From Candidatus Methanoperedens sp. (GTDB lineage: Archaea > Halobacteriota > Methanosarcinia > Methanosarcinales > Methanoperedenaceae): a stretch of DNA of 32,000 nt. The notes beneath the pieces are model-generated. The model saw only the letters and a program-made list of their open reading frames with translations, was not told where the DNA came from and did no database searches. Positions 3,078-32,000 of this stretch are shown here, piece by piece. Within the stretch, counting starts at the first letter, position 1. The number at the start of each line of letters is the position of its first letter. Location: positions 240,001 to 272,000 of the forward strand of contig JBGQBI010000004.1 in NCBI GenBank assembly GCA_041494705.1. The letters run 5' to 3'. Made by a program: the position numbers and the translations under genes.

Positions 3078-4055
3078 ATGGTAGAAAGAAAAGGATTGGA
3101 AGATTTGCCTGGCGTCGGCCCGGCAACAGCAGAGAAACTGAAAGAAGCGGGTTTTGGCTCGATTGAGGCCATTGCCGTATCGTCGTCATCCGAACTTGCA
3201 AGCATAGCTGAAATCGGGGAGTCGACCGCGCAAAAAATCATCAATGCGGCGCGCCAGGCTGCGGACGTTGGGGGATTTGAGACCGGCGATCTTGTGCTTG
3301 AGCGCAGGAAACTTGTGGGAAAACTCAGTTTCGGCACAAAGGCTTTTGACGACCTGATGGGCGGGGGCGTTGAGACACAGGCAATAACCGAATTCTATGG
3401 CGAGTTCGGTTCAGGGAAAACGCAGGTCGGCCACCAGATGGCTGTGAATGTCCAGCTGCCGCAGGAAGATGGCGGCCTCGGGGGCTCTGTTATAATAATA
3501 GACACTGAAAATACCTTCAGGCCTGAAAGAATCACGCAGATGGTAATGGGCTTGTCTGCAAAGAAGGGGAAGGAATACGACCCTGAGGAGTTCCTGAAAA
3601 AGATCCATGTTGCAAAAGCCTATAATTCGAACCACCAGATACTGCTTGTTGACACGGCCAATGATCTCGCTCTTAAATTGAAAGATACTGATGCGCCTGT
3701 GCGCCTTCTGATAGTTGATTCCCTGACTGCGCATTTCAGGGCTGAATACGTGGGACGCGGCACGCTTGCAGACAGGCAGCAGAAGCTCAACAAGCATATG
3801 CACGAACTGATGAAATTTGGGACCCTTAACAATGCGGCCATCATCGTGACGAACCAGGTGATGTCAAAACCCGACGCCTTCTTCGGCGACCCCACAAAAC
3901 CTATTGGCGGACATATCGTGGGACATACTGCAACGTTCAGGCTGTACCTGCGCAAATCCAAGGGCGAGAAGAGAATTGCAAGGCTTGTTGATTCCCCGAA
4001 CCTGCCAGAGGGCGAGGCGATATTCTCGGTCACCACGGAAGGGCTTAAGGATTAA
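3078..4055 (+). CDS. radA: DNA repair and recombination protein RadA
   Basis: The N-terminus has an HhH motif ([20 protein letters not shown]). Walker A is GEFGSGKTQ and a Walker B-like LLIVDS is present. A GGAGGAG Shine-Dalgarno sequence precedes the ATG. Confidence 0.95.
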
Positions 4056-4072
4056 AAATCTGTATTAAAGAT

Positions 4073-4747
4073 GTGGAATACAAAGCTGTAGTGGTAGATG
4101 TTGACGGGACAATCACATATAGTGACAGGAGCCTTGATTTCAGGGCTGTTGAAGCGCTCCGGAGCCTTAAAGTACCTGTGGTGATTGCCACCGGCAACGT
4201 CCTTTGTTTCGCAAGGGCTGCCTCAAAACTTGTCGGGACAGGAGGCATCGTGATAGCAGAGAACGGCGGGATCGTGGAGTGCGGGAGTGTTGAATCCGAC
4301 ACTTCGCATATGAAGGAGTGCGAGGAGGCTTTCGAGTTCCTGGAAAGACATTTTACACTTGAAAGGATTGACCCTGAATACAGGATTACAGAGATTGGGC
4401 TGCGGCGGGATTTTGATGTGGAGAGTGCGAGGGAGCTGCTAAAGGAGTTTCCTGAGGTTGAGATTGTGGATACCGGGTTTGCGGTGCATATCAAGAGCAA
4501 GAGGATTAATAAAGGGATTGGGCTTAAACGGATTGCGCAGATGATGGGGCTTGATGTGCGGGAGCTTGTGGCTATCGGGGATTCTCCGAATGATGTCGAG
4601 ATGTTGAAGGTATCGGGTTTTGGGGTGGCTGTGGGGAATGCGCATCCTGAGGTAAAGAGGGTGGCGCGGATGGTGACGAAAGGGGAGTATGGGGCAGGGG
4701 TGGCGGAGGCAGTGGGGAAGCTGAGAAGGAGAGGGGAGATAAGATGA
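4073..4747 (+). CDS. HAD-superfamily phosphatase, archaeal phosphoglycolate phosphatase type
   Basis: HAD motif I is VVDVDGTIT and the TGN motif is VIATGN. AENGG is present, and the C-terminal motif is IGDSPNDVEM. The start codon is GTG. Confidence 0.7.
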   Translation: MEYKAVVVDVDGTITYSDRSLDFRAVEALRSLKVPVVIATGNVLCFARAASKLVGTGGIVIAENGGIVECGSVESDTSHMKECEEAFEFLERHFTLERIDPEYRITEIGLRRDFDVESARELLKEFPEVEIVDTGFAVHIKSKRINKGIGLKRIAQMMGLDVRELVAIGDSPNDVEMLKVSGFGVAVGNAHPEVKRVARMVTKGEYGAGVAEAVGKLRRRGEIR

Positions 4748-4839
4748 GAATCGAAAGGATTTACAGCAAGAAATATTATATAGCGAAGACACTATTAAAC
4801 ATCTAATACATATCGAGTTTGCTTAACTTGGGTTAAAAT

Positions 4840-5055
4840 ATGAAAGAATACAAAGTGGCTTTATCAAGGGCGTATATTGTAACCATTGAGGCGGAAAACG
4901 AAGAAAAAGCATGTAGATATGCAGAGTATTTTTTAGGCCATTGTTATGATGCATCTGATTTAAAAGATAAACAGGAATATAAATTTTCGATTAGAGAAAT
5001 TGAGCCTACTATAAATGATGCTATTGACGTTGAAGAAGTAAAAGAACATGAGTGA
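4840..5055 (+). CDS. Hypothetical small acidic protein (first gene of low-GC islet)
   Basis: This 71-aa ORF overlaps the next ORF by 8 nt, which suggests translational coupling. I recognise no motif in it. Confidence 0.45.
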   Translation: MKEYKVALSRAYIVTIEAENEEKACRYAEYFLGHCYDASDLKDKQEYKFSIREIEPTINDAIDVEEVKEHE

Positions 5056-5983
5056 AAGTTTTAAAAAGCCATCACAAACGGAACTTTTAGTAGATGATTT
5101 TTTACAAAAAGCTAAAGAATTTCAAACCCATATTGAGTTGATAAAAGTTCTAAAATCGCGAACATATAAAATAGCTGAAGCAAACGTTTTAATCCGTGCG
5201 GCATCAGAAGGAAATCGAAGATATTTCTTTGGGTTGAACTACATTACAGCAGAGGAAATGGCTAATCTTGATAACCCATTCATTGCTTTTATCTGCGGTT
5301 CTTTGGACAGAACAATTATTATGCCCGCCCAGACTTTATTTAAACATTTGCCGAAGATAAGTCACGATAGAAATGGTGAATATAAAATAAATATTGACAA
5401 CGATTTGAATATTGTTTTAGCAGGACGCAACAATAGAATAGATTGTAGCAAATATATTAATTCATGGGAATTACTTTTAAACTCCACAAATAAACCAGAA
5501 GAAAAAAATACAATAGAAGTAAGTTTACATACTATTTTAGAGGGGAGACTTTTAGAAATAGGTAATATACGTGGCTTTCAAACATATTGCCCTGATAAAG
5601 CCAAAAAGTTTAACGATAATAAATTATCGGATATTTCTTCTTTAGAAACTTGCCCAAACTTGCAGTTTTCTGATTATGATGTTTTGAGATATATTGATGT
5701 ACTTTGGTTTAAGGAAAAGGGTAAAAATTTCATTCCCGAATGTGCATTTGAAGTAGAACTTAATACAGGAACTTGGTCAGGAGTTGGCAGATTGGCAACA
5801 CTGGTTGATTACAGTAATGTAAAACTGTATATTATTTCAAATGATTCGCGAAAATATAAACAAGTTCTGAACTCTTTTCCGGAATACGATCACCGTTATA
5901 AAAACATTCCTTTCGATCAGATCGGCGAGTTATATTCGGCTGAAAAACAATTAAAAGATTTAAGATATAGTATCGGTTTATAG
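5048..5983 (+). CDS. Hypothetical two-domain protein; C-terminal PD-(D/E)xK-like nuclease motif
   Basis: This is a long ORF in a strongly AT-rich segment. The C-terminal pattern IDVLWF...ECAFEVELNTG...GRLATL...KLYIISND resembles restriction-endonuclease-fold cores. That assignment is by eye only. Confidence 0.5.
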   Translation: MSESFKKPSQTELLVDDFLQKAKEFQTHIELIKVLKSRTYKIAEANVLIRAASEGNRRYFFGLNYITAEEMANLDNPFIAFICGSLDRTIIMPAQTLFKHLPKISHDRNGEYKINIDNDLNIVLAGRNNRIDCSKYINSWELLLNSTNKPEEKNTIEVSLHTILEGRLLEIGNIRGFQTYCPDKAKKFNDNKLSDISSLETCPNLQFSDYDVLRYIDVLWFKEKGKNFIPECAFEVELNTGTWSGVGRLATLVDYSNVKLYIISNDSRKYKQVLNSFPEYDHRYKNIPFDQIGELYSAEKQLKDLRYSIGL

Positions 5984-6074
5984 GAATTTTTAAAATGATA
6001 GTATATGATTTTCATGTTTTTCCAAGCAAATTAAATCTGCGTTCATCGGCTTCATGCACGCCGTTATGCATAGG

Positions 6075-26294: not shown

Positions 26295-26917
26295 ACCCCA
26301 TATGCCCACAATTCGATAATCTTATATGTTATACTGTTTTTTTTAATGAATTCCATAATCTTATTTTTATTTTCAGCAGGAACGGCAATAACACTCCGTT
26401 CTATTTTTTTACCTGATAATTCTTCCAACAGCCCTTTTGAAACAAAGATTTTCTCCCCAACTCTTTGCTTGTAGCCGTATAATTCTCTCCAGAGTTTAAT
26501 CTTTTTGTTCCTGTCCATCCTGCTGAAATCCAGGACAAACATGGCATAATATTTCGCTCCTTTCGGCATTTCTTCAAATTTCCCATATAAAATGATGCCG
26601 CTGCTGATAACGCTTCTGTAAATATCCCATTTCTCAAGCTTGCCAGCTTTTATCGACAGAGGATTCTTCAATCCTTTGAGTCCCCATTTTTCATTTATCT
26701 CTGATTTTTCAAATGCCTTCATCAGTTTTTTTATGGCATTTTCAACGGCTTTTTCTTTTTCCGTATCTATAAAAATGTCTATATCACTTTCGCTGTCAAA
26801 GTCCCCGCGTGCTACTGAACCAAAAAGAATTATTTTGTTTATGTCGGCGCCTATTTCCGACTTCAGCAAAAATGAGGAAAAATCCATAGCATAAGCTACA
26901 AGTTCATTTTTATTCAT
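26291..26917 (-). CDS. Nucleotidyltransferase-domain protein with ~95-aa C-terminal extension (Cas2/VapD-like by eye)
   Basis: The NTase signature is ILFGSVARGDFDSESDIDIFI. The C-terminal part YYAMFVLDFSRMDRNKKIKLWRELYGYKQRVGEKIFVS... resembles the Cas2 N-terminal beta1-alpha1-beta2 pattern. Confidence 0.75.
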   Translation of the reverse strand: MNKNELVAYAMDFSSFLLKSEIGADINKIILFGSVARGDFDSESDIDIFIDTEKEKAVENAIKKLMKAFEKSEINEKWGLKGLKNPLSIKAGKLEKWDIYRSVISSGIILYGKFEEMPKGAKYYAMFVLDFSRMDRNKKIKLWRELYGYKQRVGEKIFVSKGLLEELSGKKIERSVIAVPAENKNKIMEFIKKNSITYKIIELWAYGV

Positions 26918-27308
26918 TGAGTATCCCCAGAATAATCATCTCAACTTCGTTGAAAAGTTCTATAATCTCTTTTATGTTCTCTTTCGACTTTGGGGCACCG
27001 TAGGTCAGCAACTCGCTTGAATTTTCCAGAACAATCATTTTTTTAAGAATCTTGTCCTTATTCTCAAAAGCAGGTAGTTTTTCAGAGACCTTTTCAGACT
27101 TGAACCACCTGTGATTTAGCTGAAAGCCTTCATCAACAAGCTTTTTCCTGTGCAGATATGCGGAAAGAAGCTCGACTACTGCTCGCGAGGCATTAAGCCC
27201 GACGGTTCTCTGGGATTTCTCCAAGCCTCGTATCTCAAGAGCCCATGAGAAAATGTTGTCTTTATATTCCTGATACGCTTTCAGGTGGTCTTCCTCTTTC
27301 ATGAGCAT
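26910..27308 (-). CDS. Helical 132-aa partner protein (possibly divergent HEPN-like), unknown function
   Basis: It overlaps the downstream NTase gene by 8 nt. The segment SRAVVELLSAYLHRKKLVDEGFQLNHRW loosely recalls the HEPN helix pair. No clean Rx4-6H motif is present. Confidence 0.5.
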   Translation of the reverse strand: MLMKEEDHLKAYQEYKDNIFSWALEIRGLEKSQRTVGLNASRAVVELLSAYLHRKKLVDEGFQLNHRWFKSEKVSEKLPAFENKDKILKKMIVLENSSELLTYGAPKSKENIKEIIELFNEVEMIILGILNE

Positions 27309-28074: not shown

Positions 28075-28800
28075 ATGATGTTCGCCAAGAAATGCCCGAA
28101 GTGCGGCGGCAATGTTCAGACAAAGAGTCTAAAAAAGTCCATCGGACTTGGATTCGTAAATATCCCGGTGGCACAGTTTTGCCTGAATCCGGTATGCGAT
28201 TGGTACCAGGATTTCGCTGAAACCAAAGAACCGGAAGAGATTAAAGAGGGGTTTCAAATTAAAGTACCGTCTATCAAAAGTAAGTTACCTGAACTTAAAA
28301 AACCCAATTTATCCCAAAAACATTTCATTGCGCTGGCGGCTGTTGTAGTTATTATTGGAATTTACATTCTGTTTTCGTATTTATCGCCCACAGTTCATTC
28401 CCCGGGACTCCTGCCACAGCAACCAGACGTGCCCAAAACAAATATGCCTCTGGTAAATACAACCCACCCGCCTGTGGCCGCTTCACCTCAAACCCCGGCA
28501 GTACCGCAGGTGATTGCGGAGCAAAAGAAATATTCAATAAAATTTGATGTTTCGCATGGTTTTAATCCTAAAGTTCTAACCATAAACAGGTCAGATACCG
28601 TAATCTGGAATAACGATGAAAACCAGCGTCCGAGGGTGGTTCTTGTAAGTAAGGATGGTCTTTTTAAAAACAGGCTCATGGAATATTCTGAAAAATACCA
28701 GTACCAGTTCAACCAGTCGGGAAGCTATATTTTTGTGCAGGCTGAATATCCTTCCTTGAATGAATACCCGAATGCCACGAATGAAATCATTGTCAAATAA
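28075..28800 (+). CDS. Membrane-anchored protein: N-terminal zinc ribbon, one TM helix, Pro-rich linker, C-terminal cupredoxin-like beta domain
   Basis: The zinc ribbon is CPKCGG...CLNPVC and the TM helix is HFIALAAVVVIIGIYILFSYL. The linker is PQQPDVPKTNMPLVNTTHPPVAASPQTPAVPQ. The C-terminal KVLTINRSDTVIWNNDE lacks Cu ligands. Confidence 0.55.
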   Translation: MMFAKKCPKCGGNVQTKSLKKSIGLGFVNIPVAQFCLNPVCDWYQDFAETKEPEEIKEGFQIKVPSIKSKLPELKKPNLSQKHFIALAAVVVIIGIYILFSYLSPTVHSPGLLPQQPDVPKTNMPLVNTTHPPVAASPQTPAVPQVIAEQKKYSIKFDVSHGFNPKVLTINRSDTVIWNNDENQRPRVVLVSKDGLFKNRLMEYSEKYQYQFNQSGSYIFVQAEYPSLNEYPNATNEIIVK

Positions 28801-29449: not shown

Positions 29450-30214
29450 TTAAAAAAACCTGGATGCGAGAGTAGATTTCACATCGCACATTCCCGTAAA
29501 CCCGCAATATTCGCAGGGCGCATCTTTTGGTTTTTCCGGCATGATGCCATTCTGTATTTTTTTAATTTTTTCAAGAATCTGGAGAACATTTCTCCGTTCA
29601 TGACGCCTGATTGCCGCCTCTCTCACCATACCCAACCGTGCATATTCCACAAACCCGCGCCTGACCGGTATATCATATTTTTCTTCAACCAGAACTGCAT
29701 AGGCGGTCAACTGCAGCCTGTCGCCATGCCAGATGCCATTTAAAGGCATATTTCCTGTTTTTATTATTGATGGTGTGAGTTCATCGTTCGTTCTTATCAA
29801 TCTATCCGGGCTTCCGGTCATACCAAATTTTTCAGATTGGAGCGATTCATTATGGCTCACTTCACCTGCAAAAAAACCATTGTACGAAGAAAGGTTCGAA
29901 CAAATAACTAGAAGACAGGAGCGAACATCCGTAACTGCCTCTGCAAGCATTTCATCATCGATGCTGTCGAGTTCATTGCGATAAATCACAGGGATTTCCT
30001 TTAAAATCCGGTCAAGTTCCAAATTCAGGATGGAAAGTTTATCTTCGCTATTAAAAGCGAGGTCATATACCAGAGCCAGTTCTTTCAGTATAATGCCCTC
30101 CAGATAGCCGGGAGTGCCCTCTTTTATTAAATTATGTCCTTTATTCGTGAAAAAGCACATCCTGGGGCATTTGTGATAAATTGTAATATCCGAGACCCTT
30201 ATCATGGAGTTCAA
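29450..30214 (-). CDS. Cas4-family (DUF83) PD-(D/E)xK nuclease with four-Cys cluster, stand-alone
   Basis: The N-terminus has YHKCPRMCFF and the C-terminus has CEYCGFTGMC. QLTAYAVL provides the QxxxY motif. The core is GSPDRLIRTNDELTPSIIKTG. Confidence 0.72.
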   Translation of the reverse strand: MNSMIRVSDITIYHKCPRMCFFTNKGHNLIKEGTPGYLEGIILKELALVYDLAFNSEDKLSILNLELDRILKEIPVIYRNELDSIDDEMLAEAVTDVRSCLLVICSNLSSYNGFFAGEVSHNESLQSEKFGMTGSPDRLIRTNDELTPSIIKTGNMPLNGIWHGDRLQLTAYAVLVEEKYDIPVRRGFVEYARLGMVREAAIRRHERRNVLQILEKIKKIQNGIMPEKPKDAPCEYCGFTGMCDVKSTLASRFF

Positions 30215-30301
30215 AATACTGCAAACATTTAAAAATATTGCTATTTGAAATCGTTAATTGTCCGGACGGGACGGAAGTCTTTTGTAGAATCAATTTCTTA
30301 C

Positions 30302-30874
30302 ATGGTTATAATGAGGACAGGAACTAACCGAAAGATAATTCTCCTTTCTTTAGGGCTGGCAGTACTTGGCTTTGTGTTTTTTCTTCCATTATATACGGGC
30401 GCTTTTACAAATCCGGATTTTACCAGGTGCGATGCCTGCCATGTGCGGGTGGGGGATGAACTCTCACGGAGTGCCCTCCATAAGGACCTAAAATGCACCA
30501 GTTGCCACAATGTCACCGATTTCGCCCCTGATTTATATTCACACAATGCAACAACCGTTGAGTGTACCTGGTGCCATAATGAGACGAATGCCACCCAATT
30601 TATCGGTGATGCGCACACCGATTTCCAAAATGCCAGTTCCAATAGTTCCATTTTCGTTGGCAGGAATGAGATGTGTGTTTCCTGTCATACAGCTATTGAC
30701 CTTGAAATAGAATGGCATTCGTATAAAGGTATGAATATGACAGTTTCAAGTCGTAGCGGAGCCTGGGAAACGCAGTTCTCCTCCGTGTCCGGAGATAATA
30801 AATCAATCAGTTATACCAATTATACTAACTACCTGAATAATACAAATTGGACAAACAGGTCAAATAATTCATGA
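30302..30874 (+). CDS. Tetrahaem c-type cytochrome with N-terminal signal anchor
   Basis: There are four CxxCH motifs: CDACH, CTSCH, CTWCH and CVSCH. The hydrophobic N-terminus is KIILLSLGLAVLGFVFFLPL. I count about 13 N-x-S/T sequons. I take the start at ATG 30302 rather than TTG 30245. Confidence 0.85.
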   Translation: MVIMRTGTNRKIILLSLGLAVLGFVFFLPLYTGAFTNPDFTRCDACHVRVGDELSRSALHKDLKCTSCHNVTDFAPDLYSHNATTVECTWCHNETNATQFIGDAHTDFQNASSNSSIFVGRNEMCVSCHTAIDLEIEWHSYKGMNMTVSSRSGAWETQFSSVSGDNKSISYTNYTNYLNNTNWTNRSNNS

Positions 30875-32000
30875 AACCAGAGAATATATTTATTTTAATA
30901 ATAGTATTTGTTTCTGTTTCGGTTTTTGCCAGCTCTGCTGCCAACGGGTCTGCAATTGTCATACGGGCGCCTCCGGATAATTATTTGACCAATGTATCCG
31001 TAGTTACAGTTACCGGAGAAGCTGACCCCGGTGCGGTATTGAGTTTGAATGGCGTATTACTTTCAAACAACAACGGTATTTTTTCAAAAAACATAACGCT
31101 GGCTGAAGGATTGAACAGAATAATCATTACGGCTCAACAGAACGGGAATGTATCAACTGCAACCGTAAATGTCACCCTTGATACAATAAGTCCCGGAGTA
31201 ATAATAACATCGCCTGATACGAAATACATTAATACGACTGCTCTTAACATCAGTTACACTTCCAATGCCACAGATATCGAATCGTACAGGGTCCGCCTGA
31301 ACAAACAGGAATGGGTGGTGACCAATGAAACATATTATTTATTCAATGCAACAGAAGGTCCGGCTTTAATTGAGGTTCAGGCAATAGACCATGCAGGCAA
31401 TATCGGGGAGATGAGCCGGAATCTCACTGTTGATACCATCCCGCCATTGATTGAAATAACCAGACCTGACATTAATGAACCTATCATCAGCAGGACTGTG
31501 GAAATTTCAGGCAGGACTGCGATAGGTGCCAATGTTACCCTGAACGGAGTGAACCTTACCAATAATAACGGTACATGGAGCAGCGAAATATTGCTTTGGG
31601 CAGTTAATAATCCTGTCCGCATAGAAAGCACAGACCCTGCCGGGAATAAAGCTGTGAAGACGATTAATATCCGCATCGGGGAAAATTTCAGTAATACAAT
31701 GCCTTTTCAGGATTTCTTCAATCAAACGATTAATTTCAACAGAATAGGGACGTTTGAAGAGAAAAGCAAAGCCGTTTCAGGGAAATATGTGAGCTACCTG
31801 TTTGATAATAATTATTCCGCTTTTATGGGATATTCCATCAACAATTCGGAATCCGAAACAGTATGGTTCAATAAAATATATATTTCAAATTTCACAGCCG
31901 AAAATATCAGCGTTTCCGGCTCTGTTGCCAGATATTTCCAAAACATGAAATTCGGCCGGAAGCATTATATCGGTTTTGAAATGCATGACAACAAAATGGG
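30871..32000 (+). CDS. Large secreted surface protein with repeated Ig-like modules (3' end outside window)
   Basis: My own translation shows the frame open from ATG 30871 to the window end, at least 376 aa. The signal peptide is MKPENIFILIIVFVSVSVFASSAANG. The modules repeat (...LNGVLLSNNNGIFSKNITL... and ...LNGVNLTNNNGTWSSEILL...). The junctions are DTISPGVIITSPD and DTIPPLIEITRPD. This ORF is absent from the track. Confidence 0.78.
   Translation, partial: MKPENIFILIIVFVSVSVFASSAANGSAIVIRAPPDNYLTNVSVVTVTGEADPGAVLSLNGVLLSNNNGIFSKNITLAEGLNRIIITAQQNGNVSTATVNVTLDTISPGVIITSPDTKYINTTALNISYTSNATDIESYRVRLNKQEWVVTNETYYLFNATEGPALIEVQAIDHAGNIGEMSRNLTVDTIPPLIEITRPDINEPIISRTVEISGRTAIGANVTLNGVNLTNNNGTWSSEILLWAVNNPVRIESTDPAGNKAVKTINIRIGENFSNTMPFQDFFNQTINFNRIGTFEEKSKAVSGKYVSYLFDNNYSAFMGYSINNSESETVWFNKIYISNFTAENISVSGSVARYFQNMKFGRKHYIGFEMHDNKM

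Follow-up and report, generated by a model that had tools for sequence, protein, structure and literature searches.

The window analysed here is a stretch of 32,000 nucleotides from Candidatus Methanoperedens sp. (contig JBGQBI010000004.1, positions 240,001 to 272,000 of the forward strand), and positions below are those of the window unless a related locus (prefix L) or a protein of such a locus (prefix P) is named. At its downstream end lie two overlapping genes, one for a small tetrahaem cytochrome c and one for a haem-free surface protein, hereafter the partner, which is ended by the window edge. These two genes, and the possibility that they form a surface electron-transfer module, are the subject of this analysis. 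The reference structure for the cytochrome, PDB 8E5G, is AvECN (AEA46122/F2KMU8), which PMC12954529 identifies as the subunit of an extracellular cytochrome nanowire in Archaeoglobus veneficus. The features of the two genes are as follows.

30311 to 30874, + strand: tetrahaem cytochrome c, 187 residues (family profile against PDB 8e5g_A; hhalign)
30326 to 30409, + strand: N-terminal hydrophobic segment of the cytochrome, residues 6-33 (Kyte-Doolittle scan, homologue conservation)
30428 to 30442, + strand: haem-binding motif 1, CDACH (invariant in 20/20 homologues)
30494 to 30508, + strand: haem-binding motif 2, CTSCH (motif scan and homologue alignment)
30563 to 30577, + strand: haem-binding motif 3, CTWCH (motif scan and homologue alignment)
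30674 to 30688, + strand: haem-binding motif 4, CVSCH (within the block NEMCVSCHTAIDLEIEW, the part that aligns best with AvECN, NEACIACHTYVPVKINW)
30479 to 30718, + strand: four His codons outside the CxxCH motifs, candidate distal haem ligands by homologue alignment (H57, 30479-30481; H78, 30542-30544; H102, 30614-30616; H136, 30716-30718)
30791 to 30871, + strand: C-terminal Asn/Ser/Thr-rich tail of the cytochrome, GDNKSISYTNYTNYLNNTNWTNRSNNS, with 6 N-x-S/T sequons (homologue comparison)
30871 to 30874, + strand: ATGA overlap of the cytochrome stop and the partner start (4-nucleotide overlap in 11/14 distinct pairs)
30871 to 32000, + strand: N-terminal 376 residues of the partner, ended by the window edge (90% identical to L001:8274-10385)
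30871 to 30942, + strand: predicted signal peptide of the partner, MKPENIFILIIVFVSVSVFASSAA (sequence and hydropathy)
30955 to 31668, + strand: three immunoglobulin (Ig)-like beta-sandwich modules (Pfam/NCBIfam and self-comparison; 0-3 copies in homologues)
31744 to 32000, + strand: start of a conserved core of ~400 residues, beginning near an invariant GKYV and continuing past the window (family alignments)

The open reading frame (ORF) of the cytochrome stops at the TGA at 30872-30874 on the + strand and would encode 190 residues if counted from the ATG at 30302. Across 14 related loci, aligned by their upstream regions and N-termini, the conserved start is the second ATG (30311), from which the protein begins MRTGTNRK; this is the best start on sequence grounds, the 3 extra residues of the longer version being without conservation. 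An earlier annotation made without database searches (the sequence-only reading) had described a protein of about 190 residues with four CxxCH motifs behind a signal anchor, ending in a low-complexity tail. That description holds, with a length of 187 residues from the better start, a hydrophobic stretch at residues 6-33 and a tail rich in Asn, Ser and Thr. The cytochrome contains exactly four CxxCH motifs (CDACH, CTSCH, CTWCH and CVSCH) and eight histidines, four within these motifs and four elsewhere; H57, H78 and H102 are invariant across 20 homologues, and H136 is absent from some of them. The hydrophobic segment terminates in a conserved FFLPxYTGA motif and is plausibly a signal peptide or a signal anchor, with a signal-peptidase site plausible after TGA.

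The cytochrome has 13 N-x-S/T sequons, where shuffles that preserve its composition average 4.1 (0/20,000 reach 13); the partner fragment has 20, where such shuffles average 7.8 (0/20,000 reach 20). The corresponding densities per 100 residues are 7.0 and 5.3, and the 19 other proteins of the window have a mean of 0.5. Three sequons of the cytochrome recur in 16-20 of the 20 homologues, from which an extracytoplasmic location is predicted. Export signals and sequon enrichment beyond shuffles make both proteins candidates for extracytoplasmic glycoproteins, as had been proposed from the sequence. By exact look-up, no gene identical to the window cytochrome is on record; its homologues form 34 clusters among 5.8 billion proteins. 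The named relatives all belong to Ca. Methanoperedens or Methanosarcinales, and the one source-named match as well as 8/9 genome loci are from metagenome-assembled genomes of Ca. Methanoperedens; Methanoperedenaceae were among the groups that the sequence-only reading had associated with such cytochromes.

The downstream ORF of at least 376 residues with a signal peptide and 20 sequons, as the sequence-only reading had it, was found as described: no stop interrupts the frame over the 376 codons that the window contains, the signal peptide is clear, the hand count of sequons is correct, and the fragment contains zero CxxCH motifs. The two Ig-like modules it had recognised are also real. Pfam Glucodextran_B matches the fragment over two stretches (E 1.5e-19), and the two modules of this type (residues 29-104 and 186-266) share 37% identity (E 8e-8); between them lies a third, different Ig-like module of the Big_13/OmpL47 kind (residues 105-185). 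The full-length partner was inferred from orthologous loci, among which L001 encodes a cytochrome 88% and a partner 90% identical to those of the window. Full-length orthologues from the closest lineages have 699-706 residues, versions with one Ig module have 541-543, and the family as a whole ranges from 415 to 912, so the earlier description of the partner as “giant” was not borne out.

In all versions of the partner, a signal peptide is combined with 0-3 Ig-like modules and with a conserved, mostly-beta core of ~400 residues that spans the invariant GKYV to an S-x-P-x-F-S-x-H motif. The core is followed by a hydrophobic stretch and a transmembrane helix, and the protein ends in a basic tail (for example RKAVRKKR). 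The Ig modules are thus the variable and not the defining part of the family, and the core is its conserved part. The best reading of this topology, taken from sequence, is a predicted type-I membrane glycoprotein with a cytoplasmic basic tail. The sequence-only reading had associated such cytochromes with S-layer-type partners and had looked ahead to PGF-CTERM anchors and further CxxCH motifs downstream. Neither an S-layer model (for instance of the DUF1608 type) nor a PGF-CTERM/archaeosortase model of Pfam or NCBIfam matched the full-length orthologues at E ≤ 1, the orthologue C-terminus (...ALPAGSRELVFSMWWFGSIMMIYILIRKAVRKKR) is a plain transmembrane helix and basic tail with no PGF motif, and none of the partner versions contains a CxxCH.

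The partner resembles the Ig-like repeat adhesins (Glucodextran_B/Big) in its Ig-like beta-sandwich modules, and a partner-profile search of representatives was dominated by giant Ig-repeat adhesins, with the core present in 5 of the top 150 matches; the family as described here is thus covered down to 205 bits. Scans of metagenomes with partner and cytochrome patterns found nothing, and scans of viral contigs likewise. The divergent partner P0072 (L021:1417-2664) carries a precomputed match to Pfam PF27849 “MAST”. When TIGR04204 (MAST_ArtA_sort) was applied to seven core sequences, it matched P0072 only (1/7; E 0.03, 14 bits, cut-off 150). The likeness to MAST proteins (TIGR04204/PF27849) consists of the PF27849 match and this weak TIGR04204 match, in the C-terminal half of the core; the other 6/7 core sequences are without a match, and no description of the domain was found in the literature searched.

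Distinct loci that encode the partner core number 14 (the window, L001, L002, L005, L013-L018, L021, L024, L026 and L027), and a family cytochrome lies immediately upstream on the same strand in 14/14 of them. The ATGA overlap from which translational coupling had been proposed is seen at 30871-30874 and shared by 11/14 distinct pairs; the non-ATGA junctions are a 3-nucleotide gap in L021, an 18-nucleotide gap in L026 and a called 38-nucleotide overlap in L024. The pair is retained at 32-45% cytochrome identity and ~30-50% partner identity, with different flanking genes (L002, L021, L024 and L026), and where the partner has zero Ig modules (P0072 and P0135). Percentage identities of the cytochrome and the partner to those of the window fall in step (88/90, 82/83, 58/57, 54/59, 45/50, 43/44 and 32/36).

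The cytochrome tail follows a related pattern. A C-terminal NYT-rich extension is found in all partner-linked cytochromes, and this tail (...G-[DE]-N...NYTNYTDYLN-x-T) is missing from the short, partner-less cytochromes of L007-L010; L011, with a tail and no partner, is the exception. At L007:6001-6462, and also in L008 and L009, the slot between the Cas4-like gene and GPI holds a cytochrome of 153 residues with neither tail nor partner, which suggests that tail and partner were gained or lost together in one lineage. At L025:4438-4992 (P0027), in synteny with the window, a cytochrome remnant has been joined in frame, by internal deletions, to the C-terminal hydrophobic anchor of the partner; the fusion retains three haems (motif 4 is lost), and the entire partner ectodomain is deleted. 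L025 could represent a naturally occurring “anchored cytochrome”, or else an operon in decay. Among the partner-linked cytochromes, the one that has diverged furthest (L024:294-1229) is called at 311 residues with extra N-terminal hydrophobic segments; it is either a version that stays in the membrane permanently or the product of a wrongly called start.

One could suppose that the partner is an adhesin or envelope glycoprotein functionally unrelated to the cytochrome, and that their adjacency is an operon accident inherited within one archaeal family. The N-terminal modules of the partner are indeed generic Ig-like adhesin domains, common to thousands of giant adhesins, some cytochrome orthologues have no partner, and the loci are almost all from Methanoperedens. 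Against this stand the conserved part of the protein, which is the unique core and not the Ig modules (the Ig-less P0072 and P0135 still follow a family cytochrome), the presence of the cytochrome at 14/14 partner loci, also where the flanking genes differ, and an overlap or near-abutment kept at ~30% identity. We consider this explanation quite improbable. The sequence-only reading had itself named, as an outcome that would count against a joint function, a generic adhesin not co-conserved with the cytochrome, which does not describe these loci.

To place the cytochrome, a family profile of 20 members was searched against all PDB sequences by using hmmsearch. The top match was 8e5g_A (E 3.4e-9); in the same search NrfH (2j7a_C) scored E 1.9e-4, over the N-terminal third only, and OmcE scored E 0.23. 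For profile-profile comparison, AvECN residues 5-120 and 140-246 were rebuilt from the HMMER output as hhalign input, and the alignment of the cytochrome family with AvECN reached 97.6% probability (E 3.6e-12, 112 columns). All four CxxCH motifs and His 57, 78 and 102 are colinear with AvECN, H136 lies one column off the WTH of AvECN, and the block NE-x-C-[IV]-[AS]-CHT...I-x-W is in register. Both proteins are archaeal tetrahaem c-type cytochromes, AvECN being exported and the window protein predicted to be, with four CxxCH and three other His colinear, and they share the longer block AH-x-F...NE-x-C-[IV]-[AS]-CHT-x-[IV]-x-[LV]-x-I-x-W and a sequon-rich beta-strand C-terminus. They differ in size (262 residues in AvECN, 187 here), their identity over the 112 aligned columns is ~27%, several AvECN insertions are absent from the window protein, and AvECN forms filaments, which for the window protein is only a possibility.

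By sequence, the window cytochrome is therefore a divergent, remote member of the AvECN/MmcX family and no orphan type. A 2024 paper describes an MmcX clade with 3-5 haems that takes in AvECN and members from Methanoperedenaceae, ANME-1, ANME-2, Syntropharchaeales and Archaeoglobales (PMC11176372). MmcX itself (“Ca. Serpentinarchaeum” Met12), compared here by its published description, is like the window protein a four-haem AvECN homologue with a signal peptide; it differs in that no conserved downstream membrane-anchored partner is reported for it in PMC11176372. A 2026 review states that Methanoperedenaceae own homologues of the A. veneficus nanowire (PMC13046784), and an “ECN” of Methanoperedens BLZ2 has been cited as WP_097300794.1 (PMC12246660); each would be an orthologue or a paralogue of the window cytochrome. 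A three-haem paralogue with 38% identity (L020:5773-6327) lies elsewhere in the same genome as L013, so that this family has more than one member in Methanoperedens. No generic cytochrome model of Pfam or NCBIfam scored above threshold for the window cytochrome, and labels as cytochrome c3/c7 or as an MtrC domain were rejected, all such Pfam matches being sub-threshold and reflecting only generic CxxCH spacing.

The size and layout of the protein also invite comparison with the NapC/NirT/NrfH-type quinol dehydrogenases. Under this explanation an uncleaved N-terminal helix would sit in the membrane, the cytochrome would take electrons from menaquinol or methanophenazine outward, and the partner would be merely a co-transcribed surface protein. 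Like NrfH, NapC, NirT and CymA (PF03264, TIGR03153, PDB 2J7A), the window cytochrome has an N-terminal hydrophobic helix followed by four CxxCH at similar total size, and only ~7-10 residues separate its hydrophobic segment from the first CxxCH. Its best NCBIfam match is TIGR03153 NrfH (E 1.8e-5), and PDB NrfH 2j7a_C matches the family profile at E 1.9e-4. However, TIGR03153 scores 24.8 bits against a cut-off of 134.2 and PF03264 (NapC/NirT) 14.6 bits against 24.1, and the NrfH alignment is limited to the N-terminal third, whereas AvECN matches over the whole length with a higher score. A CxxCHxM at haem 1 is a trait of NrfH known from the D. vulgaris NrfH structure. The window has CDACHVR and the family consensus CDACHVQ at this position, so the motif is absent. 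The conserved P-x-Y-T-G-A at the end of the hydrophobic segment resembles a signal-peptidase site, and no cognate reductase gene (NrfA, NapAB, NirS or similar) is present in the window or at any related locus, the neighbours being the Cas4-like nuclease, the partner and a cupin-type GPI. Proteins of the NrfH kind have both CxxCHxM and a partner reductase, and the window cytochrome is without both and aligns with them in its N-terminal third alone. We regard a quinol dehydrogenase as decidedly unlikely; a NapC/NrfH-type protein beside a periplasmic reductase, the other outcome that the sequence-only reading had weighed against its proposal, does not match the sub-threshold scores or the gene neighbourhood.

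Taken together, the two genes of Ca. Methanoperedens may form a module for electron transfer at the cell surface, with the partner anchoring or presenting the AvECN-like cytochrome, and we consider the chances of this to be about even. It is the best reading of the AvECN homology, the strict pairing, the parallel divergence, the fitting topologies (N-terminal export signals on both proteins, and in the partner one C-terminal transmembrane helix followed by RKAVRKKR), the conserved sequons, the correlation of tail and partner, and the L025 fusion. In such a module, both proteins would be exported by Sec to the outer face of the membrane, where the cytochrome would receive its four haems, with the conserved extra histidines as likely distal ligands, and where both would be N-glycosylated. 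The partner would then hold, nucleate or present the cytochrome at the cell surface, as a monomer or as an AvECN-like polymer, and electrons from the membrane-bound respiratory chain could reach extracellular acceptors. Gene structure, haem motifs, AvECN homology and the strictly adjacent, co-conserved arrangement are read directly from the sequences; that the proteins are exported and glycosylated, that they interact physically and polymerise, and which way the electrons flow, we infer.

Several observations weigh against this module. In L007-L009 the 153-residue cytochrome stands alone in the same slot between the Cas4-like gene and GPI, which makes the partner dispensable for some orthologues, and a cytochrome without a partner also occurs at other locations in L010 and L011. 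Nearly all loci come from one organism family, and part of the co-occurrence is therefore shared ancestry. The homology to AvECN is remote (for the single sequence, E 0.048 and 27% identity over the aligned columns), and the fourth candidate distal histidine (H136) is not kept throughout the cytochrome family. The mature cytochrome, at ~150 residues, is far smaller than AvECN (262 residues), so polymerisation is not to be assumed. The partner core has no relatives in Pfam, NCBIfam or PDB by sequence and profile searches, and no motif in it points to a function. The haem-free AlphaFold2 model of the cytochrome, built from a 20-sequence alignment, was uninterpretable (predicted local distance difference test (pLDDT) 42.5), as was overall that of the partner (P0040, full length, 10 sequences; pLDDT 44.2). 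Only the Ig module and the C-terminal helices of the latter were confident, and Foldseek of this model returned Ig-domain matches only, none at E ≤ 1e-3. Neither model lends the module structural support. Published electrode and metal studies of Methanoperedens point to other clusters, and the surroundings of the pair are housekeeping genes and not an electron-transfer island, with no other cytochrome in the 32-kb window. The candidate extracellular electron-transfer module of the sequence-only reading accordingly stands in part: export-type signals, AvECN homology, coupling and co-conservation speak for it, and the housekeeping context and the absence of the partner from some loci speak against it.

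If the proteins do act together, they could do so as a non-polymeric 1:1 surface complex, in which a monomeric cytochrome docks on the partner core and provides a short-range redox contact or relay in the pseudo-periplasm or S-layer, with no nanowire. The ATGA coupling suggests similar stoichiometry, the L025 fusion joins one cytochrome to one anchor, the cytochrome is ~75-100 residues shorter than AvECN and only remotely homologous to it, and the fourth candidate distal histidine is not conserved. A single tetrahaem protein, however, spans only a few nanometres, so that other carriers would be needed, and the AvECN pattern of haem motifs and histidines is common to the cytochrome family. We judge such a complex possible though somewhat unlikely.

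A more specific form of the anchoring or presenting module would have the partner mount an archaeal cytochrome nanowire on the cell surface. The tail of the first subunit, rich in sequons, would bind to the conserved partner core, and a membrane-proximal histidine would cap the otherwise unsatisfied haem at the cell-proximal end, thereby nucleating the filament and coupling it electrically to the membrane. The partner has a single invariant membrane-proximal histidine (H348 of P0040-core numbering), in the FSxH motif just before the transmembrane helix. This proposal is improbable in our estimate; if it is true, no anchor or initiator of an archaeal cytochrome filament will have been identified before this one.

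Anaerobic methane oxidisers, Methanoperedens among them, have to pass electrons to minerals, electrodes or partner cells, and the electron route beyond the membrane is recognised as a gap in the understanding of such organisms (PMC13046784). Structures of cytochrome nanowires have been determined for two archaea, and the secretion, initiation and fixation to the cell of the filaments are unsolved (bioRxiv 10.1101/2025.10.22.684050). The locus is a concrete two-gene candidate for attaching an archaeal nanowire-type cytochrome to the cell. Should the partner tether or nucleate the cytochrome, the question of anchoring would become directly testable; should it not, an unannotated cytochrome would still have been reclassified, its NapC/NrfH reading set aside and a new surface-protein family defined. 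The partner family appears restricted to the Methanoperedens lineage, from which nearly all loci come. The cytochrome adds a divergent new member to a known family; the dedicated partner family and the conserved two-gene module are, within the literature searched, undescribed.

Among known systems, nanowire clusters of OmcE in bacteria always include a putative secretion or anchor protein, and some OmcE lineages glycosylate the filament subunit (bioRxiv 10.1101/2025.10.22.684050). The Geobacter/Desulfuromonas clusters (PDB 7TFS) resemble the window pair in setting a tetrahaem filament subunit beside dedicated non-haem envelope proteins with a proposed role in secretion or anchoring. Their accessory set comprises a beta-barrel of the outer membrane and lipoproteins of the beta-propeller type, whereas a single predicted type-I membrane protein is found here, which fits an archaeal envelope, and the sequence similarity of OmcE to the window cytochrome is negligible (E 0.23). 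The S-layer-fused multihaem cytochromes of ANME and Methanoperedens and the OmcZ-like cluster (PMC10542353, PMC10874420) belong to the same organisms and have a proposed role in trans-envelope electron transport. In contrast to the small cytochrome and the haem-free anchored glycoprotein encoded here by separate, coupled genes, each of them is one large polypeptide with many haems and with S-layer or OmcZ-like domains.

One further feature of the cytochrome gene emerged when the upstream regions from 15 loci were aligned.

30273 to 30300, + strand: conserved 28-nucleotide element, GGAAGTCTTTTGTAGAATCAATTTCTTA

The element is kept even where the upstream gene differs (L002, L011 and L021). Within it, the centre of TTTTGTAG lies ~27 nucleotides before the ATG at 30311, which corresponds to archaeal TATA-box spacing and hence suggests a leaderless transcript; the 28-nucleotide element would then be a BRE (B recognition element)/TATA-like promoter. 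An AT-rich box at 30226-30239 (CATTTAAAAATATT) is conserved in syntenic loci only and may serve the divergent Cas4-like gene. A hairpin at 30258-30274 returned by a promoter/terminator scan was set aside, as it lies in a non-conserved stretch and the scan uses bacterial models, which are uninformative for an archaeon.

The window is otherwise ordinary chromosome, with genes for RPA, RadA, Cdc6/Orc1, HisRS, hisF/hisB, NadA, PyrF and an FprA-like flavoprotein, together with DsrE-like genes with TusA, endonuclease V, AsnC and the Cas4-like nuclease (named from syntenic loci). The order DsrE, TusA, endonuclease V, hypothetical protein, AsnC, Cas4-like nuclease, cytochrome, partner and GPI is repeated in related genomes. 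The Cas4-like gene (29450-30214, - strand), divergent from the cytochrome gene, encodes a stand-alone PD-(D/E)XK nuclease with a C-terminal Cys cluster; it is the upstream neighbour in most loci, and the window contains no CRISPR array or cas operon. The hypothetical protein (28075-28800, + strand; 241 residues) has no Pfam match and keeps its position in all syntenic loci. It carries an N-terminal CxxC...C zinc-ribbon-like motif, a transmembrane segment and a C-terminal beta-rich domain with 5 sequons.

Past GPI, L005 (14085-15676) and L027 (6934-8507) hold a PF01578 gene (Cytochrom_C_asm, of the CcmC/CcmF/CcsA type) and a polytopic membrane protein of ~200 residues; two-component regulators take the place of the PF01578 gene in L001, and the window stops before that point. 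A nucleotidyltransferase/HEPN-like pair (26291-27308, - strand; 208 and 132 residues) separates TusA from endonuclease V. Of the syntenic loci, L001, L005 and L007 lack the pair and L025 has it, so that it is taken as a mobile insertion of toxin-antitoxin type. Origin-like repeats were looked for upstream of the Cdc6/Orc1 gene and none were found. The sole tRNA of the window is a tRNA-Ser (anticodon TGA) at 24765-24850 on the - strand. Positions 4001-6000 have a low G+C (0.39) and a GC skew of 0.28, the highest skew of the window, and contain an ORF of 311 residues (5048-5983) without a Pfam match.

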